Below, in pieces: positions 3,425-51,245 of a stretch of 64,000 nucleotides of DNA. The DNA comes from Acetofilamentum sp. GTDB lineage: Bacteria > CAIWAD01. A model generated the notes under the pieces. The model made no database searches. It saw only the letters and a list, made by a program, of their open reading frames with translations, and was not told the DNA's origin. The position numbers and the translations under genes are program-made. Location: positions 7,440-71,439 of the forward strand of contig DYSB01000001.1 in the NCBI GenBank assembly GCA_020726405.1, given 5' to 3'. Numbering within the stretch: position 1 is the stretch's first letter; each line of letters opens with the position of its first letter.

Positions 3425-4426
3425 TCAGAATTGTTCGAGGAAGCGCCAGTCGTTTTCGTAGAAGAGCCGGATGTCGTCCACACCGTAGAGCAGCATGGCC
3501 ATGCGCTCCACGCCCAGGCCGAAGGCGAAGCCCGTCCACTCCTCCGGGTCCAGGTCCACACCGGTCAGCACGGCGGGGTCCACCAGGCCGCTGCCGCCCA
3601 TCTCCAGCCAGCCCGAGTGCTTGCAGACCCGGCAGCCCGCGCCGCCGCAGAAGATGCAGCTCACGTCCACCTCGGCGCTGGGCTCGGTGAAGGGGAAGAA
3701 GTGCGGCCGGAAGCGCAGGCGCGTGTCCGGCCCGAACATGCGGCGGTAGAACTCCAGCAGCGTACCCTTCAGGTCGGCGAAAGTCACGCCGTGATCCACG
3801 TAGAGGCCCTCCACCTGCATGAACATCGGGCTGTGGCTGGCGTCCGGCTTGTCGTTGCGGTAGACGCGGCCCGGCGCAATGATCCGCACCGGCGGCTTGA
3901 CCTGCTCCAGCACGCGGATCTGCACCGGGCTGGTCTCCGTGCGCAGCATGTGGCCCTGCTGCAGGTAGAGGCTGTCGGACTCCATTCGCGCCGGATGCCA
4001 GAAAGGCGTGTTGAGCATGTCGAAGTTGTAGCGCTCGGTCTCCACTTCCGGGCCGTCCTCCACGGTGAAACCCATCCGCGTGAAGATGCCCGTGATGCGG
4101 TCCAGGATCTGCTGCAGCGGGTGCAGGGAGCCCGTCCGGACGGGGTGGCCCGGCAGGGTGAGGTCCACACGGGCCACGCCCTCGCGGTTCAGCAGCTCCT
4201 CCTGGCGGGCCATGAAGACGGCCTCCAGTTCCTCCTTCAGCACGTTGATCTGCGCGCCAAAGGCCGGGCGCTCTTCGGCAGGCAGCTCGCGCATCTGCTT
4301 GAAGAGGTCCTGCAGCCGCCCCTTGCGGCCCAGCCAGCCCTGATGCACGGCCGCCAGGGCCTCGCGGTCCGCGGCGGCGGCCAGGGCGGCGAGGAACTCG
4401 GCGCGCAGGCTGTCGAGGGTGTTCAT
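3425..4426 (-). CDS. pheS: phenylalanine--tRNA ligase alpha subunit
   Basis: ORF 3425..4618. The PheS-like product starts at the internal ATG (4426): MNTLDSLRAEF. Class II aaRS motifs FRPHFFPFTEPS and GLGVERMAMLLYGVDDIRLF are present. Confidence 0.95.
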   Translation of the reverse strand: MNTLDSLRAEFLAALAAAADREALAAVHQGWLGRKGRLQDLFKQMRELPAEERPAFGAQINVLKEELEAVFMARQEELLNREGVARVDLTLPGHPVRTGSLHPLQQILDRITGIFTRMGFTVEDGPEVETERYNFDMLNTPFWHPARMESDSLYLQQGHMLRTETSPVQIRVLEQVKPPVRIIAPGRVYRNDKPDASHSPMFMQVEGLYVDHGVTFADLKGTLLEFYRRMFGPDTRLRFRPHFFPFTEPSAEVDVSCIFCGGAGCRVCKHSGWLEMGGSGLVDPAVLTGVDLDPEEWTGFAFGLGVERMAMLLYGVDDIRLFYENDWRFLEQF

Positions 4427-5799: not shown

Positions 5800-7731
5800 C
5801 TACGCCGTCACCGACTCCTCCAGGCGGCGGCCGTCGACCAGGCCCCGCAGTTCGCTGACCAGTTCCGCCACCGGACGCACGCCCAGGTCGCCCTGGCCAT
5901 GCCGGCGCACCGCCACCAGGCCCTGCTCGGCCTCGCGCGCGCCCACCACCAGGATCCAGGGGATCTTGCGCAGCTCGGCGGCGCGGATCTTGTAGCCGAT
6001 CTTCTCCGAGCGCGTCTCCAGCTGGGCCCGCAGGCCCGCCTTGAGCAGCTCCTGTTGCACGCTCCGCGCGGCCTCCAGCTGCCCCTCGGTGATGGGCAGC
6101 ACGATGGCCTGGACGGGCGCCAGCCAGGTGGGCAGGTTGCCGGCGAAGTGCTCGATCAGGATCCCGATGAAGCGCTCGAAGGAGCCGAAGATCGCGCGGT
6201 GGATCATCACGGGGCGCTGGCGGCTGCCATCCTCCGCCGTGTACTCCAGCTCAAAGCGCTCGGGCATGCTGAAGTCCAGCTGGATGGTGGCGCACTGCCA
6301 GCGGCGCCCCAGGCAGTCCTTGATGTGGAAGTCAATCTTCGGACCGTAGAAAGCGCCGTCGCCGGGGTTCAGCTTGTAGGCGGCGCCCACCCGCGCCAGG
6401 GCCGCCTTGAGGGCGCCCTCGGCCTGCTCCCAGACTTCCAGGCTGCCGATGAACTTCTCCTCCGGCCGGGTGGAGAGTTCCATCTCGTAGCCGAAGCCGA
6501 AAGTCGAGTAGATCCAGTCCACCAGCTGGATGACCTTGACGATCTCGTCCTCGATCTGGGGCGGGGTGCAGAAGATGTGCGCGTCGTCCTGGGTGAACAT
6601 GCGCACGCGGAACAGGCCCTGGAGCACGCCGGACTTCTCGTGGCGATGCACCTGGCCCAACTCCGCCAGCTTGAGCGGCAGTTCCTTGTAGGAGTGCGGC
6701 TGGCTGCCGAAGATCGTGCAGCAGCCCGGGCAGTTCATGGGCTTGACCGCGTAGTCCTGCTCGTCGATCTGCGTGAAATACATGTTCTCGCGGTAGTGCT
6801 CCCAGTGGCCGCTCTTGTGCCAGAGACTCTCCGAGAGGATCATGGGCGTGCGGATCTCGCTGTAGCCGGCCTCGCGGTGCAGCTCGCGCCAGAAACGCAC
6901 CAGCTCGTCGTAGACCACGGTGCCGTTGGGATGCCAGAAGGGGAAGCCCGGCCCCACCTCGTGGAAGGAGAACAACTCCAGCTCGCGGCCCAGTTTGCGG
7001 TGGTCGCGCTTCTTGGCTTCCTCGATCAGGAACAGGTGCTGGTCCAGCTCCGCCTGGCTGGGGAAGCTGATGGCGCGCACGCGCTGCAGCTGCTCGTTCT
7101 TCTCGTCCCCGTGCAGGTAGGCGCCGGCCACGCTGAGCACCTTGACGGCCTTGATCTTGCCCGTATCCAACAGGTGCGGACCGCGGCAGAGGTCGGCCCA
7201 GGCGCCCTGCTCGTAGACGCTGATCGACTCGCCGCGCGCCGCGATGGCGTCGATGAGTTCCAGCTTGAAGCGCTCGCCCCGGGCCGCGAAAAAACTGCGG
7301 GCCTCGTCGGCGCAGAGCTCGCGCCGGACCAAGCGCTCCTTGCGTTTGAGCACCTCGCGCATCTTCTCTTCGATGCGGGTGAGGTCCTCTTCGCCGATGG
7401 GAGTGGGGAACTTGATGTCGTAGAAGAAGCCGGCCTCGGTGGCAGGGCCGTCGTCCAGCAGGGCCGCGGGCCACAATTCTTTGACGGCCTGGGCCAGCAC
7501 GTGGGCCGAACTGTGCCAATACACGGTCTTGCCCGCCTCGTCTTCCCAAGTCAGGAAGCGAATGCGGGCATCCTTGTGGATCGGATGGACCAAGGAAACA
7601 AGCTCGCCGTCCAAATCAGCCGCGAGGGCGGCCTTGGCGAGGGAAGGGCTGATTTCCTTGGCGACTTCCAGCGGCGTGGCGCCAGGTTGAACCTGACGCT
7701 GGGCGCCGTCCGGAAAGGTTAGGGTGAACAT
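5800..7731 (-). CDS. thrS: threonine--tRNA ligase
   Basis: 643 aa; TGS-like N-term MFTLTFPDGAQRQV, class II catalytic core (HRAIFGSFERFIGILIEHFAGNLPTWLAPVQAIVLP) and anticodon-binding C-term. Confidence 0.97.
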   Translation of the reverse strand: MFTLTFPDGAQRQVQPGATPLEVAKEISPSLAKAALAADLDGELVSLVHPIHKDARIRFLTWEDEAGKTVYWHSSAHVLAQAVKELWPAALLDDGPATEAGFFYDIKFPTPIGEEDLTRIEEKMREVLKRKERLVRRELCADEARSFFAARGERFKLELIDAIAARGESISVYEQGAWADLCRGPHLLDTGKIKAVKVLSVAGAYLHGDEKNEQLQRVRAISFPSQAELDQHLFLIEEAKKRDHRKLGRELELFSFHEVGPGFPFWHPNGTVVYDELVRFWRELHREAGYSEIRTPMILSESLWHKSGHWEHYRENMYFTQIDEQDYAVKPMNCPGCCTIFGSQPHSYKELPLKLAELGQVHRHEKSGVLQGLFRVRMFTQDDAHIFCTPPQIEDEIVKVIQLVDWIYSTFGFGYEMELSTRPEEKFIGSLEVWEQAEGALKAALARVGAAYKLNPGDGAFYGPKIDFHIKDCLGRRWQCATIQLDFSMPERFELEYTAEDGSRQRPVMIHRAIFGSFERFIGILIEHFAGNLPTWLAPVQAIVLPITEGQLEAARSVQQELLKAGLRAQLETRSEKIGYKIRAAELRKIPWILVVGAREAEQGLVAVRRHGQGDLGVRPVAELVSELRGLVDGRRLEESVTA

Positions 7732-7824
7732 GGTCCCCAGCCTTTCTGTTTGACCGGAGTGACGTGCGCCAGGACGTCATCTCCTTGTCGCGGAATGATT
7801 TCGGTCCTTCAGGACCTCCGCGAG

Positions 7825-7899
7825 TGGGCGACACGGGATTTGAACCTGTGACCTCTTGCGTGTCGAGCAAGCGCTCTAACCAACTGAGCTAGCCGCCCC
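7825..7899 (-). tRNA. tRNA-Val (anticodon GAC)
   Basis: Reverse complement reads GGGCGGCUAGCUCAGUUGGUUAGAGCGCUUGCUCGACACGCAAGAGGUCACAGGUUCAAAUCCCGUGUCGCCCA. 7-bp acceptor stem, D arm GCUC/GAGC, anticodon stem CUUGC/GCAAG with loop UCGACAC (GAC), T loop UUCAAAU. One A-C mismatch in the T stem. CCA not encoded. Confidence 0.85.
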
Positions 7900-7986
7900 C
7901 AGAAGCCGCGAAATGTAGAGTTGCCCGAGGCTGGAGTCAAGAACTCAGGTAGATTTCTCGTTGACTTTGTCGTTGGGGAGGAGATG

Positions 7987-8174
7987 TCCACAGATTACAC
8001 AAATTACACGGATCAAAAACTGTTTTCATCTGAAACCAAATTTTGTCGCAATTGATGGTCATTCTAAATACCTGCAACTTTCAAACCTATTGACAGATAA
8101 TATGAGTTTAACGATGCAGTGTAGCATTTATTCAATTTATTGCCTTAATTCGTGAAATTTGTGTAATCTGTGGA
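7987..8174. mobile_element. MITE-like element with 19-bp perfect terminal inverted repeats
   Basis: TCCACAGATTACACAAATT at 7987-8005 and its exact reverse complement AATTTGTGTAATCTGTGGA at 8156-8174 flank ~150 bp of strongly AT-rich DNA in an otherwise GC-rich genome. The repeat extends to ~24 bp with one mismatch. No transposase-like ORF; track ORF 7961..8155 inside is low-complexity. No clear target-site duplication. Confidence 0.5.
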
Positions 8175-8193
8175 TACCTGGTTTTACCTAACT

Positions 8194-9618
8194 CTACCTC
8201 CCGGCGCCGCGCAGCACCGTGCGCACCGTATAGAGCAAAATGCGCAAGTCCAGGCCCAGGCTCATGTTCTCCAGGTAGAACAGGTCCAGGCTGAGCTTGT
8301 CCTCCAGCCGGGTCAGGCTCTGGTCGTAGCGCTGGCGCACCTGGGCCCAGCCCGTCAGGCCGGGTCGGACGTTGTGGCGGCGGGCGTAGAGCGGCCAGCG
8401 GCGGATGTATTCGTCCACCAGCGCCTTCTGCTCCGGGCGTGGCCCCACCAGCGACATCTGCCCGCGCAGCACGTTCCAGACCTGGGGCCACTCGTCCACC
8501 CGGTAGCGGCGCAGCACGCGGCCCAGCGGCGTCAGGCGCGGATCATGCTCGGTCACCGGGGGCGGGGCGCCGCTCTCCAGGGTCGCGACGGTGTCGGCGT
8601 GCAGCATGGCCACGTGTTCGGCCGGGTGCAGGGTGCGGAACTTGAGCAGCGTGAACTCCCGCCCGCCGCGCCCCACCCGGCGCTGGCGGAAGAGGGCGGG
8701 CGCCCCCGGGCTCTGCCAGTGGATCAGCGGCGGCAGGATGAGCAGCAGCGGCAGGCCGGCCAGCCCCAGCAGCAGGCCCGCGCCCAGATCCAGCCCGCGT
8801 TTGAGCAGGAACTGCCAGGGCGCCATCAGGTGCGGGAAGACCTGGATGACCGGCATGCCCCAGATGTCGAAGGCCTTGAGGTTGCCCAGCACCAAGTCGT
8901 AGAGGTCGGGCACGATGAGCACGTCGGCGCCCTGGCGCGTGGCACGCTGGATCACTTCGAAGAGCAGCTCGCGCTCGGGCTCCGTGACCACCACTTCCAC
9001 CACCTGGCGCTCGCGGATCAGCGGCTCCAGCTCGTCCAGGCCACCATCGGCGGCGGACAGGCCGGCGACCTCGCCCTGCCCGGGCGGCCGCACGCGGGCC
9101 ACCACGCGGTAACCCATCCCGGGATGGAGGCGGAACTGCTCCAGCAGCTGGCGGGCCCGCTCGCCGGAGCCCACCACCAAAGTGGCGCGCTGCCCCAGCC
9201 CGCGCTCCAGCAGGCGCTTCTGCACGGTGCGGAACAGCACGCGGCCGGTGCCCGCCCCCGCCGCCAACACCAGGCCGTAGCTAAGCAGCAGCAGGCGCGA
9301 GGCCGAGAGCGCCGGGCGGCCCGGCTCCAGCGTGATCACGAAGAGCAGGATCAGGCCCACCAGCACGGAGGCCGCCACCTCCTGCACGGCGCGGTAGCGG
9401 CTGACGTGGTAGAGCTTGCGGTACTGCCCGCGCAGGGCGAAGATCGCCAGCCAGAACAGGCTGAGCACCAGGTAGGCGGCCAGAGGTAGTTGGAAGGGCT
9501 CGGGCTCCGTGAACAGGCCCGAGCGGAAGCGCAGAAACCAGGTGAGCCAAGTGGAAGCCCAGATGCTGGCGAAGTCCACCACCACCAGGAACAGCCGTTC
9601 CCAGGACAGGCGTCTCAC
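8194..9618 (-). CDS. undecaprenyl-phosphate sugar phosphotransferase (WbaP/EpsB-like initiating EPS transferase)
   Basis: 474 aa with N-terminal TM helices and a C-terminal bacterial sugar-transferase domain (LVGPRPEQKALVDEYIRRWPLYARRHNVRPGLTGWAQV). Confidence 0.85.
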   Translation of the reverse strand: MRRLSWERLFLVVVDFASIWASTWLTWFLRFRSGLFTEPEPFQLPLAAYLVLSLFWLAIFALRGQYRKLYHVSRYRAVQEVAASVLVGLILLFVITLEPGRPALSASRLLLLSYGLVLAAGAGTGRVLFRTVQKRLLERGLGQRATLVVGSGERARQLLEQFRLHPGMGYRVVARVRPPGQGEVAGLSAADGGLDELEPLIRERQVVEVVVTEPERELLFEVIQRATRQGADVLIVPDLYDLVLGNLKAFDIWGMPVIQVFPHLMAPWQFLLKRGLDLGAGLLLGLAGLPLLLILPPLIHWQSPGAPALFRQRRVGRGGREFTLLKFRTLHPAEHVAMLHADTVATLESGAPPPVTEHDPRLTPLGRVLRRYRVDEWPQVWNVLRGQMSLVGPRPEQKALVDEYIRRWPLYARRHNVRPGLTGWAQVRQRYDQSLTRLEDKLSLDLFYLENMSLGLDLRILLYTVRTVLRGAGR

Positions 9619-9636: not shown

Positions 9637-11280
9637 TCAGATACTGCGCGCCACCAGCACAACGGTCATGATCTGGGAGGCAACCAGCAGGCCTTCCTTG
9701 AACTTCTCCCAGGCGGTGAGATCCTCCCGCGGCACCAACATCAGGGCGTCGCCGGCGGCCATTACAGTTCCCAGGGAGGCAGGGCTGAACTGGTCCTCCC
9801 CCACGTGGCGCAGGCGCAGCTCGTTGAGCCGCGCGCCACGCAGCTTGCCGCCCGCGGCTTTCAGGTAGTCGCGGACCGTCCACCCATCCCGCCAAGCCTG
9901 GACACCCGGATGCTTGACGGCGCCCAGCACCTCCACGTCGTCGGAGCGGCGCAGCACGCGGACTTCGTCGCCGTCGGCCAGAATCAGGTGCGCGGCGTCC
10001 AGGCGTCCATTCTCGTAGACCACCGACACCCTGCCGCCCTCCTGGATGACGCGGGCCTTGAGGTATTCCCGTTCGAAGCGCGAGATGTCGCTCCCCGCAC
10101 TTCGCAGCTCCGCGAAGTTCCTCTCCAAGTCCATCTCCGGCCGGCGGGTGACCTTGATGGCCATGAGCGCGGCAGACTGGCTGTCCGGCTGGGCCCACTC
10201 CAGCAATTCCGCCAACGTCGTCTGACCCGGATTGATCGCGTAGGGCCCGGGCCGCAGCACGCGTCCGTTGATGGTCACCTGTTTGGACATGTCCTGGAGG
10301 TTGTCCGCCCGCATGTAAAGGCGGTCGTAGGCTTGAATGCTGATGCCCCGGTACTCGGGGGACTGCTCACTGAAGCGCCAATTGCCGACGAAATTGCCGA
10401 AGGGATCGAAGCGCACCAGTTCGTACGCCACGCCCGTCAGGCCGATGCGCGGCCCGCCCAGAATCTCCACGATGTCCGCCGGCGTATCGCCCTCGCGGAA
10501 CTCCACTTCGTCCTGGCCTTGCCGGAAGGAGCCAAACACGCGGACGATGGAATTGCGGAAGCTGAACAGGATCCGGTCACCGCTCTCCAGCACCGGGTCC
10601 TGCTCCAGATCACCCGTGCGCAGGTATCTGAGCAGGTCCACGTGTAGAGCGCTGTCGCCGCGAACCACTTCCACGTTGCGGAAGGCCAGCGGCATTTCCT
10701 GGGCCAGGGCCGAGACCTGCTGCAGGGCGCCACTGGTGCTGGTGGAAGGCACCATCATTTGCTGAGCCGCCGCGCCACGGAAGTTGGGCAGCCAAGTGGG
10801 CGGCTTGAGCACCGTGTGCAGGCGCGTGGTGTAATTCAACTCCAGAAACCGGGGCACCAGGTCGGCGCCGCTCACCGTCACCTGGATGCGGCGGGGGCGA
10901 GCCACCCACACATCCACGGAGTCGCACCCGTACATGATGGCCAGGCGCGGTCCCAGCCTGCGACGCAGTTCCAGCAGACTCAGTCCGGCCACAGACACGC
11001 GGCCCAGACCTGGCAGTTCCAGCCGGCCGTCCGTGTCCACCAAGTCTTCCTTGCGGTTCAGATCCACGTTGAAGGCCAGATGCCCCACCAGGTCGCCGGG
11101 ACCGAGGATGTACTCCGCCGGGTCCACGGGCTGGTCCAGGATCCAGTCCGCCATGGGGGTCGCCGTGGCGCCGGAGGCGGTGGTTGTTTTCTTGATCATG
11201 CCCAGATCGAACTGGGCGACGCCCGTTCCCACCCCGGCCAGCAGGGTCAGCAGCAGCCAGCAAACCGACATTCGCCTCAT
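9637..11280 (-). CDS. polysaccharide export outer-membrane protein (Wza-like, SLBB domains)
   Basis: Signal peptide MRRMSVCWLLLTLLAGVGTGVA starts at the internal ATG (11280), whose ATGA overlaps the stop of the upstream gene. PGDLV and ILGGPRIGLTGV-type soluble-ligand-binding beta-grasp repeats typical of Wza/KpsD-family exporters. Confidence 0.8.
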   Translation of the reverse strand: MRRMSVCWLLLTLLAGVGTGVAQFDLGMIKKTTTASGATATPMADWILDQPVDPAEYILGPGDLVGHLAFNVDLNRKEDLVDTDGRLELPGLGRVSVAGLSLLELRRRLGPRLAIMYGCDSVDVWVARPRRIQVTVSGADLVPRFLELNYTTRLHTVLKPPTWLPNFRGAAAQQMMVPSTSTSGALQQVSALAQEMPLAFRNVEVVRGDSALHVDLLRYLRTGDLEQDPVLESGDRILFSFRNSIVRVFGSFRQGQDEVEFREGDTPADIVEILGGPRIGLTGVAYELVRFDPFGNFVGNWRFSEQSPEYRGISIQAYDRLYMRADNLQDMSKQVTINGRVLRPGPYAINPGQTTLAELLEWAQPDSQSAALMAIKVTRRPEMDLERNFAELRSAGSDISRFEREYLKARVIQEGGRVSVVYENGRLDAAHLILADGDEVRVLRRSDDVEVLGAVKHPGVQAWRDGWTVRDYLKAAGGKLRGARLNELRLRHVGEDQFSPASLGTVMAAGDALMLVPREDLTAWEKFKEGLLVASQIMTVVLVARSI

Positions 11281-12275
11281 CGTGTCCCGTCCTCCATTCG
11301 TCGGTGCAGGCCGCCCGTCCAGGCCTTGTTGTCGGAGTACCAATCCAGGGTGCGGGCCAGTCCGTCCTCAAAATCGACGCGCGGGCGCCAGCCTAGTTCG
11401 CGTTCCAGTTTCGTGGCGTCGATGGCGTAGCGCAGGTCATGGCCCGGCCGGTCGCCCACGAAGCGGATCAGGCTCTCGGGCTTGCCCAGCTTGCGCAGCA
11501 GCAACCTGACGATCTCGATGTTCCGCCACTCGTTGTTGCCGCCCACGTTGTAGACGGCGCCATCCGCCGCGCGGGTGAAGACGGTCCAGAGCGCCTCCGC
11601 GTGGTCCTCCACGTAGAGCCAGTCGCGCACGTTGAGGCCCCGGCCGTAGACGGGCAGTTCCTCGTCGCGCGTGGCCTTCCAGATCATCAGCGGAATCAGC
11701 TTCTCGGGAAACTGGTAGGGCCCGTAATTGTTGCTGCAGCGCGTGAGCACGGCCTCCACGCCGAAGGTGCGGCGCCAGGCCTGGAGAAGCAGATCGCCCG
11801 CCGCTTTGCTGGCGCTGTAAGGACTGGAGGGCGCAAGCTGCGTCTCTTCCGTGAAGCGCCCGCCGCCCTCGCCCAGGTCGCCGTAGACCTCGTCCGTGGA
11901 CACCTGCAGGAGGCGCAGGCGCCGGCCCCGGGCCTGCTGGGCTCGCAGGCCGTCCAGCAGCACACGCAGCCCCAGGATGTTGGTGCGCAGGAAGACGTCG
12001 GGATCGTCGATGCTGCGGTCCACATGGCTCTCGGCCGCGAAGTTGATCAGGCCGTCCACGCGCTCCAGCAGGGAATTCACCAGCCTTAAGTCCAGGATGT
12101 CCCCGTGGACGAACTCGTAGCCTTCCCGGCCCTCCAGCTCCGCCAGACTCGCGCGGCAGCCGGCGTAGGTCAACGCGTCCAGGTTGACGACGGCGTGCTC
12201 CGGGTGTCGCGCCCGCAGCCAGCGGATGAAGTTGCAGCCGATGAATCCCGCCCCGCCGGTGACCAGCAGCCTCAT
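11277..12275 (-). CDS. rfbB: dTDP-glucose 4,6-dehydratase
   Basis: MRLLVTGGAGFIGCNF Rossmann start (internal ATG at 12275). YSASKA catalytic motif and NNYGPYQFPEKLIP are typical of RfbB. Confidence 0.85.
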   Translation of the reverse strand: MRLLVTGGAGFIGCNFIRWLRARHPEHAVVNLDALTYAGCRASLAELEGREGYEFVHGDILDLRLVNSLLERVDGLINFAAESHVDRSIDDPDVFLRTNILGLRVLLDGLRAQQARGRRLRLLQVSTDEVYGDLGEGGGRFTEETQLAPSSPYSASKAAGDLLLQAWRRTFGVEAVLTRCSNNYGPYQFPEKLIPLMIWKATRDEELPVYGRGLNVRDWLYVEDHAEALWTVFTRAADGAVYNVGGNNEWRNIEIVRLLLRKLGKPESLIRFVGDRPGHDLRYAIDATKLERELGWRPRVDFEDGLARTLDWYSDNKAWTGGLHRRMEDGTR

Positions 12276-51075: not shown

Positions 51076-51223
51076 GAACACCTCGTTCTGTTGTGGGGTG
51101 GTACAACTGCTTGCTCCGGAGGACACGTCCTCAGTGGAACGCTCAGAGTTTAGTCAACGAGGTGGCTGGGAAAAAGCAAAAAGTGTGTAAAAAACAACTA
51201 CTTGCTCTCAGAAACAGGAAAGA

Positions 51224-51245
51224 CCCGTTCCAGGTGAGGAACGGG
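51224..51245 (-). terminator. hairpin plus U-rich tail 3' of lipoprotein paralogue B
   Basis: CCCGTTCC-AGGTGA-GGAACGGG. On the minus strand it is followed by CUUUCCUGUUUCUG. Confidence 0.4.

Follow-up and report, generated by a model that had tools for sequence, protein, structure and literature searches.

The palindromic element between a sugar transferase gene and tRNA-Val is best explained, with a probability of roughly 0.6, as an acquired member of a widespread family of interspersed repeats, palindromic and non-autonomous, which would spread in trans by way of its hairpin DNA and would exert an effect on the 3′ end of the preceding transcript similar to that of REP sequences. It was studied in a window of 64,000 nucleotides (the whole stretch of DNA that was analysed), from an uncultured bacterial host whose ThrS is ~58% identical to the nearest named sequences (Fibrobacterota/Chitinispirillia, Sumerlaeota). 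Read along the minus strand, the locus comprises a polysaccharide-export gene, a WbaP-like transferase gene, the element, the tRNA-Val promoter, tRNA-Val(GAC) and thrS, with the following coordinates.

9637-11343, minus strand: polysaccharide-export gene
8194..9618, minus strand: WbaP-like priming sugar transferase (Pfam Bac_transf, 2.4e-54, and CoA_binding_3), the upstream gene by transcription
7987..8174, no strand: whole palindromic element, 188 bp, bounded by perfect 19-nt arms
8145..8179, minus strand: right arm, an inverted unit array in which the minus strand reads TCCACAGAT-TACACAAAT-TTCACGAAT
8017..8144, no strand: interior, 128 nt, 31% GC
7982..8016, plus strand: left arm, tandem units TCCACAGAT-TACACAAAT-TACACGGAT with CRCRRAT at 9-nt spacing and a weak outward extension
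7912..7940, minus strand: sigma-70-like tRNA-Val promoter TTGACT-17-TACATT, outside the element
7824..7898, minus strand: tRNA-Val(GAC), downstream of the element and separated from it by 88 nt
7731-5800, minus strand: thrS

The arms of the element form by far the strongest local inverted repeat of the 64-kb window. The sequence TCCACAGATTACACAAATT occupies positions 7987-8005 on the plus strand and its exact reverse complement positions 8156-8174, and the inverted repeat spans 24 nt if one mismatch is allowed and 35 nt if complementarity is relaxed to 86% (7982-8016 / 8145-8179). Only one copy of the element is visible in the window, and no gene that could mobilise it is present there. No other match to TCCACAGATTACACAAATT with up to three mismatches occurs elsewhere in its 64 kb (0/100 shuffles gave one), and the CRCRRAT units form a single forward cluster (7988-8013, three units) and a single reverse cluster (8147-8172, three units). 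The left arm matches a locus from a Bacteroidales metagenome-assembled genome (MAG), L008, at 27/27 nt.

The AT-rich interior is compositionally foreign. Mean GC is 0.67 across the window and drops to 0.30-0.39 in 100-nt steps across 7950-8199, which is the only island with GC below 0.42 save a marginal patch at 51135-51229. This patch (GC 0.43) is intergenic, contains an A-rich run and carries neither the arm motif nor a strong inverted repeat. Given that most interiors in the family track the GC of their host, whereas this one stands at 0.31 against 0.67, it probably represents foreign DNA from a low-GC donor. No similarity to the interior was found in 119 other loci. A 20-mer derived from it matched JGI metagenomes at the orthologous site only and had no match in plasmids, so that neither yielded a further copy of the exact element.

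Several other identities were tried and rejected. No conserved ORF lies within the element: a 64-aa ORF at 7961-8155 has no Pfam match, and a 23-codon ORF at 7984-8055 on the plus strand, which is opened by an SD-like GGAGGAG and an ATG at 7984 and runs into the left arm antisense to all neighbours, is probably non-coding because a stop after 10 codons truncates its ortholog in L127, a JGI metagenome contig; the element was thus dismissed as a small-protein gene. It is not a promoter carrier either, since the sole sigma-70-like site belongs to the tRNA, falls beyond the bounds of the element and is kept in element-less relatives. An intrinsic terminator was ruled out, as a terminator scan of 7700-8400 detected no Rho-independent terminator and the minus strand continues after the stem with CATCTCCTCCCC, without a U-tract. 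In a search of the window against Rfam 15, tRNA-Val alone reached its gathering score and the element had no match at E up to 10. Folding of the minus strand as RNA yields -59 kcal/mol (z = -6.55 against shuffles), that of the opposite, plus strand -56.6 kcal/mol (z = -6.3), and folding of the element as DNA gives z = -4.6. The element lies 19 nt beyond the transferase stop codon and 46 nt before the tRNA-Val promoter, and no target-site duplication surrounds it. These results bear out the original prediction in its description of the site, namely perfect 19-bp terminal inverted repeats that extend to ~24 bp with one mismatch, AT-rich sequence in a GC-rich genome, a location next to tRNA-Val (88 nt) and to the 3′ end of the WbaP-like gene (measured here at 19 nt from its stop codon), and the absence of both a transposase ORF and a target-site duplication.

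Comparison of the site across relatives establishes that the element was acquired in the host lineage, in the 3′ flank of the transferase gene and upstream of the tRNA-Val promoter. In relatives with 84-88% identical ThrS the order Poly_export - Bac_transf - tRNA-Val - thrS - infC - rpmI - rplT - pheS - pheT is kept, and the difference falls exactly at the element site. In L124, ~30 nt separates the transferase stop codon from the tRNA promoter and no element is present; in L125, a GC-rich 110-nt spacer takes its place. The tRNA-Val promoter box TTGACT...TAC(T/C)TT is kept in L122-L126, element-less relatives included. Two assemblies of the host organism itself (L120 and L121, with a ThrS identical to that of the window) carry the element unchanged, and L127 contains a diverged copy at the orthologous site. 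The original prediction had proposed this empty-site comparison and had named a single genomic occurrence, together with the presence of this sequence at the corresponding site of every relative, as the outcome that would speak against an insertion; syntenic relatives without the element show otherwise. Since these relatives have the gene order but lack the element, it is dispensable.

The region upstream of the tRNA-Val promoter is a recurrent insertion hot spot, as indicated by an AAA_14/DUF4143 ATPase gene that sits between transferase and tRNA-Val in L122 (2397-3533, minus strand) and L123 (2418-3569, plus strand), in opposite orientations. At the same site, L122 has an independent hairpin element of ~150 nt with CCACGAATG / AACCACGAATGAACAC arms, which abuts the tRNA promoter. 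Within 10 kb, L122 has three hairpin elements that measure 150-180 nt, have a GC-rich interior and bear arms of the AACCACGAATGGACACGAATG type, built of 10-nt units (768-923, 3645-3790 and 8341-8522), and those at 768-923 and 8341-8522 start 16-17 nt past a stop codon. The window counterpart of the position of the first of them (768-923) spans at most 18 nt. Only the arms are common to the three L122 elements, the local similarity of their interiors being marginal (p ~0.003-0.007 before correction, 12 tests). A conserved interior core TTGYCGCA..TGATGGTCA common to the window and one L122 element was likewise discarded, as it is only marginal after 12 comparisons.

Divergence from L127 indicates how the element has behaved since its insertion. 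Window and L127 differ at 25/188 positions of the element (13%), at 5.8% of the transferase 3′ end, at 1.1% of the promoter region and at 0% of the tRNA; the interior has diverged by ~15% versus 1-6% for the flanks. From these figures, the interior drifts at about the largely synonymous rate of the flanking gene. In the outer stem (~32 bp) five pairs have changed and 5/5 are still paired, with one double change from G-C to A-U and four Watson-Crick/G-U switches on the transcribed strand. Since the insertion, the interior has evolved at a roughly neutral rate and the arms have stayed mutually complementary.

The arms belong to a family that extends far beyond the host lineage. In a collection with one genome per species, the exact 19-mer is found in at least 119 genome stretches, when ~4 would be expected by chance (by arithmetic from the stated collection size, 596 Gb). 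Its hosts cover at least 10 phyla: Bacteroidota, Acidobacteriota (many Pyrinomonadaceae), Cyanobacteria, Planctomycetota, Verrucomicrobiota and Chloroflexota are among the matches listed, together with Gemmatimonadota, Cloacimonadota, Nitrospirota, Nitrospinota and Desulfobacterota-type lineages. The GC content of the loci spans 0.30 to 0.65, which argues against mis-binned contigs or contamination from one clade. Two loci (a Bacilli MAG and Leptospira) have no further units and are probable chance matches. Cultured carriers of the arm family include Bacteroides finegoldii, Phocaeicola and Persicobacter, and none of 5,426 E. coli genomes contains the arm motif. Among viral contigs the family is nearly absent (one IMG/VR match and a few uncultured faecal phage records), and a phage origin was rejected on this basis. 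In Prevotellaceae MAGs from the termite gut (L067, L068, L089 and L117) the arm is followed, ~60-90 nt inward of the 19-mer, by a second, unrelated repeated palindrome, GGTGTCATTCCCGCG..GGCGGGAATCTCC. Sequence-string and keyword searches of the searchable literature found no description of the arm motif; a prior description, or a named parent element in ISfinder or Dfam, may exist. The PM2 near-palindromic promoter motif of B. thetaiotaomicron was considered and dropped, as the text gives no sequence and there is no evident link (PMC7366714).

Membership of the family was defined operationally: each arm has at least two tandem CRCRRAT units at 9-10-nt spacing, of which the outermost is TCCACAG; the arms are inverted around a non-conserved interior; the arms of one element are mutually most complementary; and the whole is intergenic, shortly after a stop codon. 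The window element has the unit arrays, the inverted complementary arms and the intergenic position after a stop. Units are spaced by 9 nt in 284 cases and by 10 nt in 97, and their variants (CACAGAT, CGCAGAT, CACGGAT, CACGAAT and CACAAAT) are almost all purine transitions. At about half of the 19-mer sites listed an inverted partner lies 35-300 nt away, and a few pairs enclose a gene. Many members have an interior of 0-150 nt with no trace of a lost gene; some genomes contain tandem arrays of arms, and arm-only copies also occur. The ends of the elements are fuzzy arrays of 9-nt units instead of defined termini, their interiors have no homology with one another even within one genome, and in 50 elements examined for target-site duplications the lengths of direct repeats equal the shuffled expectation. 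No match at the Rfam gathering score was obtained in 18 family loci (126 kb in total). The units of the two arms need not come in the same order, an example being L033.

Both the pairing of the arms and their placement relative to genes depart from chance. Over 65 hairpins, 86.2% of cells are paired versus 81.0 +/- 0.6% after shuffling and 30-46% in slid controls, and 84 cells have changed on both sides versus 38.9 +/- 5.6, both values being reached by 0/500 shuffles. Inverted duplication or gene conversion, as opposed to selection, may account for this covariation. Family elements occupy tight intergenic gaps, at a median of 22 nt past a stop versus 61 nt before the next start; they lie nearer the stop than the start in 24 cases versus 12, a modest excess (p = 0.065) obtained with crude ORF-based gene calls, and with the same kind of calls convergent gene pairs around them outnumber divergent ones by 8 to 1 (p = 0.04). 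Asymmetry between G-U and A-C according to the direction of transcription is not significant (9 vs 8 hairpins, 19 vs 12 pairs).

A candidate partner has emerged from the genes that accompany the arms. Among 57 small genes located at most 120 nt from arms, PDDEXK_3 (GxxExxY) is the only recurring Pfam family (6/57). No Y1_Tnp or other transposase was found among these 57 genes and the arm-flanked ORFs (~0.9 Mb surveyed), and an association with four-helix-bundle / 23S rRNA IVS proteins was rejected, there being no 23S_rRNA_IVP match among the 57 neighbours. In the ~0.9 Mb of loci, tblastn detected eight GxxExxY genes, several of them between a forward and a reverse arm in cassettes of 520-780 bp. 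Two GxxExxY genes fetched independently of the motif are also embedded in arm arrays. In L131, 12 arm copies lie upstream of the gene with a ~104-nt period and one right after its stop codon (59-1230 and 1890-1915); in L137, an array with a 58-nt period lies downstream of it (1930-2072). The same arrangement is seen on a Delongbacteria contig, where a GxxExxY gene is embedded in an arm array. The arm-flanked GxxExxY proteins of L080 (4091-4465) and L073 (5820-6191), from Odoribacter sp. and unclassified Bacteroidota MAGs, are 96% identical, as might be expected if the cassette had been transferred recently. It is suggested that GxxExxY genes in repeats regularly break metagenome assemblies, because most close homologues come from contigs of less than 2 kb. 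The association is correlative and has been found in Bacteroidota and one Delongbacteria contig only. A bolder proposal, offered here as a tentative and rather doubtful one, is that nucleases of the GxxExxY (PDDEXK_3) family recognise the CRCRRAT arms as their sites, in a pan-phylum partnership of repeat and enzyme that would resemble REP-RAYT with a nuclease as its driver, and of which the window element would be a gene-less satellite.

Among known systems, the element compares most closely with REP/REPINs and with MITEs. In the REPIN architecture, short extragenic repeats are arranged as inverted pairs that form a hairpin around a spacer (PMC3116915). The REP/BIME/REPIN sequences of Proteobacteria, which owe their mobility to the Y1 transposase RAYT (IS200/IS605 superfamily), resemble the present family in their inverted pairs, their hairpins, their extragenic location and the lack of target-site duplication, and also in a high copy number in some genomes, in clusters and arrays, in a preference for gene 3′ ends and in the avoidance of promoter regions. 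A small gene can be found between inverted copies in both, GxxExxY here and RAYT there. There are also differences. Each REP is an imperfect palindrome with a GT[AG]G-type head, whereas the arms described here are non-palindromic 9-nt tandem arrays; REPs are specific to a species or genus, whereas the arm sequence of 19-27 nt is present in at least 10 phyla; and no Y1/RAYT gene was found beside the arms (57 genes), the associated gene encoding a PD-(D/E)XK nuclease. Classical MITEs (Correia/NEMIS in Neisseria, ERIC/IRU in enterobacteria, RUP in pneumococci and Nezha in cyanobacteria) are similarly non-coding, 100-200 bp in length, bounded by terminal inverted repeats and intergenic; they are co-transcribed with their neighbours, form long RNA hairpins and vary in presence between relatives. 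However, MITEs are characterised by defined termini, by a target duplication (often TA) and by a common interior, none of which is seen here, and by the terminal inverted repeats of a parent IS, of which no example was found among the 57 genes and the arm-flanked ORFs. The element is therefore a REP/REPIN/MITE-like non-autonomous palindromic repeat and not a classical IS-derived MITE, and it falls outside the definitions of REP/REPINs and MITEs alike. The original prediction of a non-autonomous transposable element or foreign insertion thus stands in part: the element is non-coding and lineage-specific, has a foreign interior and bears the arms of a dispersed multi-copy family. The label of classical MITE is not supported, in view of the absence of duplication in 50 members, the fuzzy ends, the interiors that are not common and the fact that no transposase-bearing parent was seen.

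More distant analogies concern integron attC sites and pdif modules, which share conserved ends, an interior of variable length, a palindromic form that is kept and small single genes between sites. Unlike these, the arms have neither the core sites RYYYAAC / GTTRRRY nor an 11-6-11 Xer site, no integrase lies nearby, and the copies are dispersed and not gathered in one array. In the Rivularia/Richelia loci L022 (4574-4640) and L042 (7700-7780) the arm abuts AATTACC tandem heptamers, which recalls cyanobacterial small dispersed repeats (SDR). According to Elhai et al. in 2008, SDRs of heterocyst-forming cyanobacteria are reportedly very short, intergenic and mobile-looking, have no known enzyme and occur beside heptamer tandem repeats. 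The likeness of the L022 and L042 arms to them is by description only, and SDRs are described within one cyanobacterial group whereas the arm family is found across phyla.

As a copy of such a family, the element is built as follows. In each arm, 9-10-nt CRCRRAT(T) units form a short tandem run with TCCACAG at its end, and the two arms, in inverted orientation, enclose either a freely varying interior of ~0 to 250 nt or, in some members, a small gene. Spread would take place in trans, with hairpin or cruciform DNA recognised by its arms in the manner of REP/REPINs instead of being cut and pasted like an IS, and the best candidate for the enzyme would be the GxxExxY PD-(D/E)XK nuclease that recurs inside arms. 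At the locus itself, read-through of the transferase operon would produce a stem of ~32 bp, 19 nt past the stop codon, which may serve as a REP-like barrier or processing site at the 3′ end before tRNA-Val-thrS.

This last possibility raises the question of whether the element is rather a functional RNA in its own right, that is, a 3′-UTR or intercistronic hairpin that would insulate the operon from tRNA-Val-thrS by terminating transcription without a U-tract, by offering RNase III a site or by stopping exonucleases. The family would then owe its conservation to an RNA-binding or RNA-processing factor, itself conserved, which recognises the CACAGAU repeats. Such a role is judged unlikely. The stem begins 19 nt past the stop, just beyond the footprint of a terminating ribosome and near the family median of 22 nt, and divergent promoter regions are avoided by 8 to 1; yet close relatives with the same gene order live without the element, and tandem arrays and arm-only copies are hard to fit with RNA signals. 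The strong minus-strand fold (-59 kcal/mol, z = -6.55) speaks for an RNA, but the opposite strand folds nearly as well (-56.6 kcal/mol), and neither a U-tract nor an Rfam match is present. Pairing has been preserved in 5/5 changed stem pairs relative to L127, as Watson-Crick or G-U on the transcribed strand, and arms co-vary over 65 hairpins, whereas 17 hairpins show no strand asymmetry of G-U vs A-C and the conservation of sequence across phyla, beyond that of structure, is unusual for a terminator. Strand-specific RNA selection found no support, as two tests of G-U vs A-C against gene direction gave 13 vs 11 and 9 vs 8. What makes a role at the RNA level plausible is position only, because these tests were negative or inconclusive and both strands fold alike.

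Two further readings look to DNA. The element might be the remnant of a horizontally acquired, arm-flanked cassette (for example F-arm - GxxExxY gene - R-arm) that lost its gene and left a scrap of AT-rich donor DNA behind, which appears quite improbable. In its favour, inverted arms do enclose a GxxExxY gene in known cassettes of 520-780 bp, a Bacteroidales MAG has an arm that matches the one in the window at 27/27 nt, and an interior GC of 0.31 vs 0.67 is unlike most interiors of the family, which track the host; nevertheless, tblastn with GxxExxY proteins detected no such gene in the window, the interior resembles none of the fetched loci, cassette flanks included, and the many members with interiors of 0-150 nt bear no trace of a lost gene. 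That the 9-bp units are iterated sites of a chromosomal DNA-binding protein, forming a regulatory or DnaA-titrating site, is more improbable still. The terminal xTCCACA resembles the DnaA box (consensus TTATCCACA), in which case two inverted arrays of boxes would frame AT-rich DNA, and against this consensus the window ends GTATCCACA and ATGTCCACA score 8/9 and 7/9. The variants CGCAGAT, CACGGAT and CACGAAT nonetheless break the CACA core of the box, the two T's that begin it are not conserved in the flanks, and the conserved part reaches GAT(T), which is absent from it; a DnaA-box cluster or origin-like element was accordingly rejected, since inner units and common variants break the box core and there is no origin context. 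The strict 9-10-bp periodicity of the units and the absence of the motif from E. coli would suit an array of protein-binding sites, as would the differing order of units between the arms of L033, which implies that units, and not exact complementarity, are partly what is kept. On the other hand, covariation of the arms beyond the consensus is not expected of independent sites, the genes around the element encode a sugar transferase, tRNA-Val and ThrS, with no dnaA or dnaN beside it, and relatives lack the element. An acquired copy of the dispersed repeat family remains the preferred reading.

At the level of the locus the significance is modest, the element being a dispensable repeat that separates a polysaccharide operon from a tRNA/thrS unit and marks an insertion hot spot upstream of tRNA-Val. 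The family is of broader interest. As a rule, short interspersed repeats are confined to one species or genus, and the occurrence of the same arm in genomes of 30-65% GC across phyla requires one of two explanations, a conserved trans-acting partner or frequent transfer between phyla. The arm family probably breaks metagenome assemblies and may have an effect on the 3′ ends of mRNAs in the gut Bacteroides used as models. It also offers a concrete, testable candidate function for GxxExxY/PDDEXK_3 proteins. If the partnership with the nuclease were true, it would account for a non-coding sequence of 19-27 nt that is near-identical from Bacteroidota to Acidobacteriota, Cyanobacteria, Planctomycetota and the host lineage, and would give a role to a large nuclease family for which no reported function was found.
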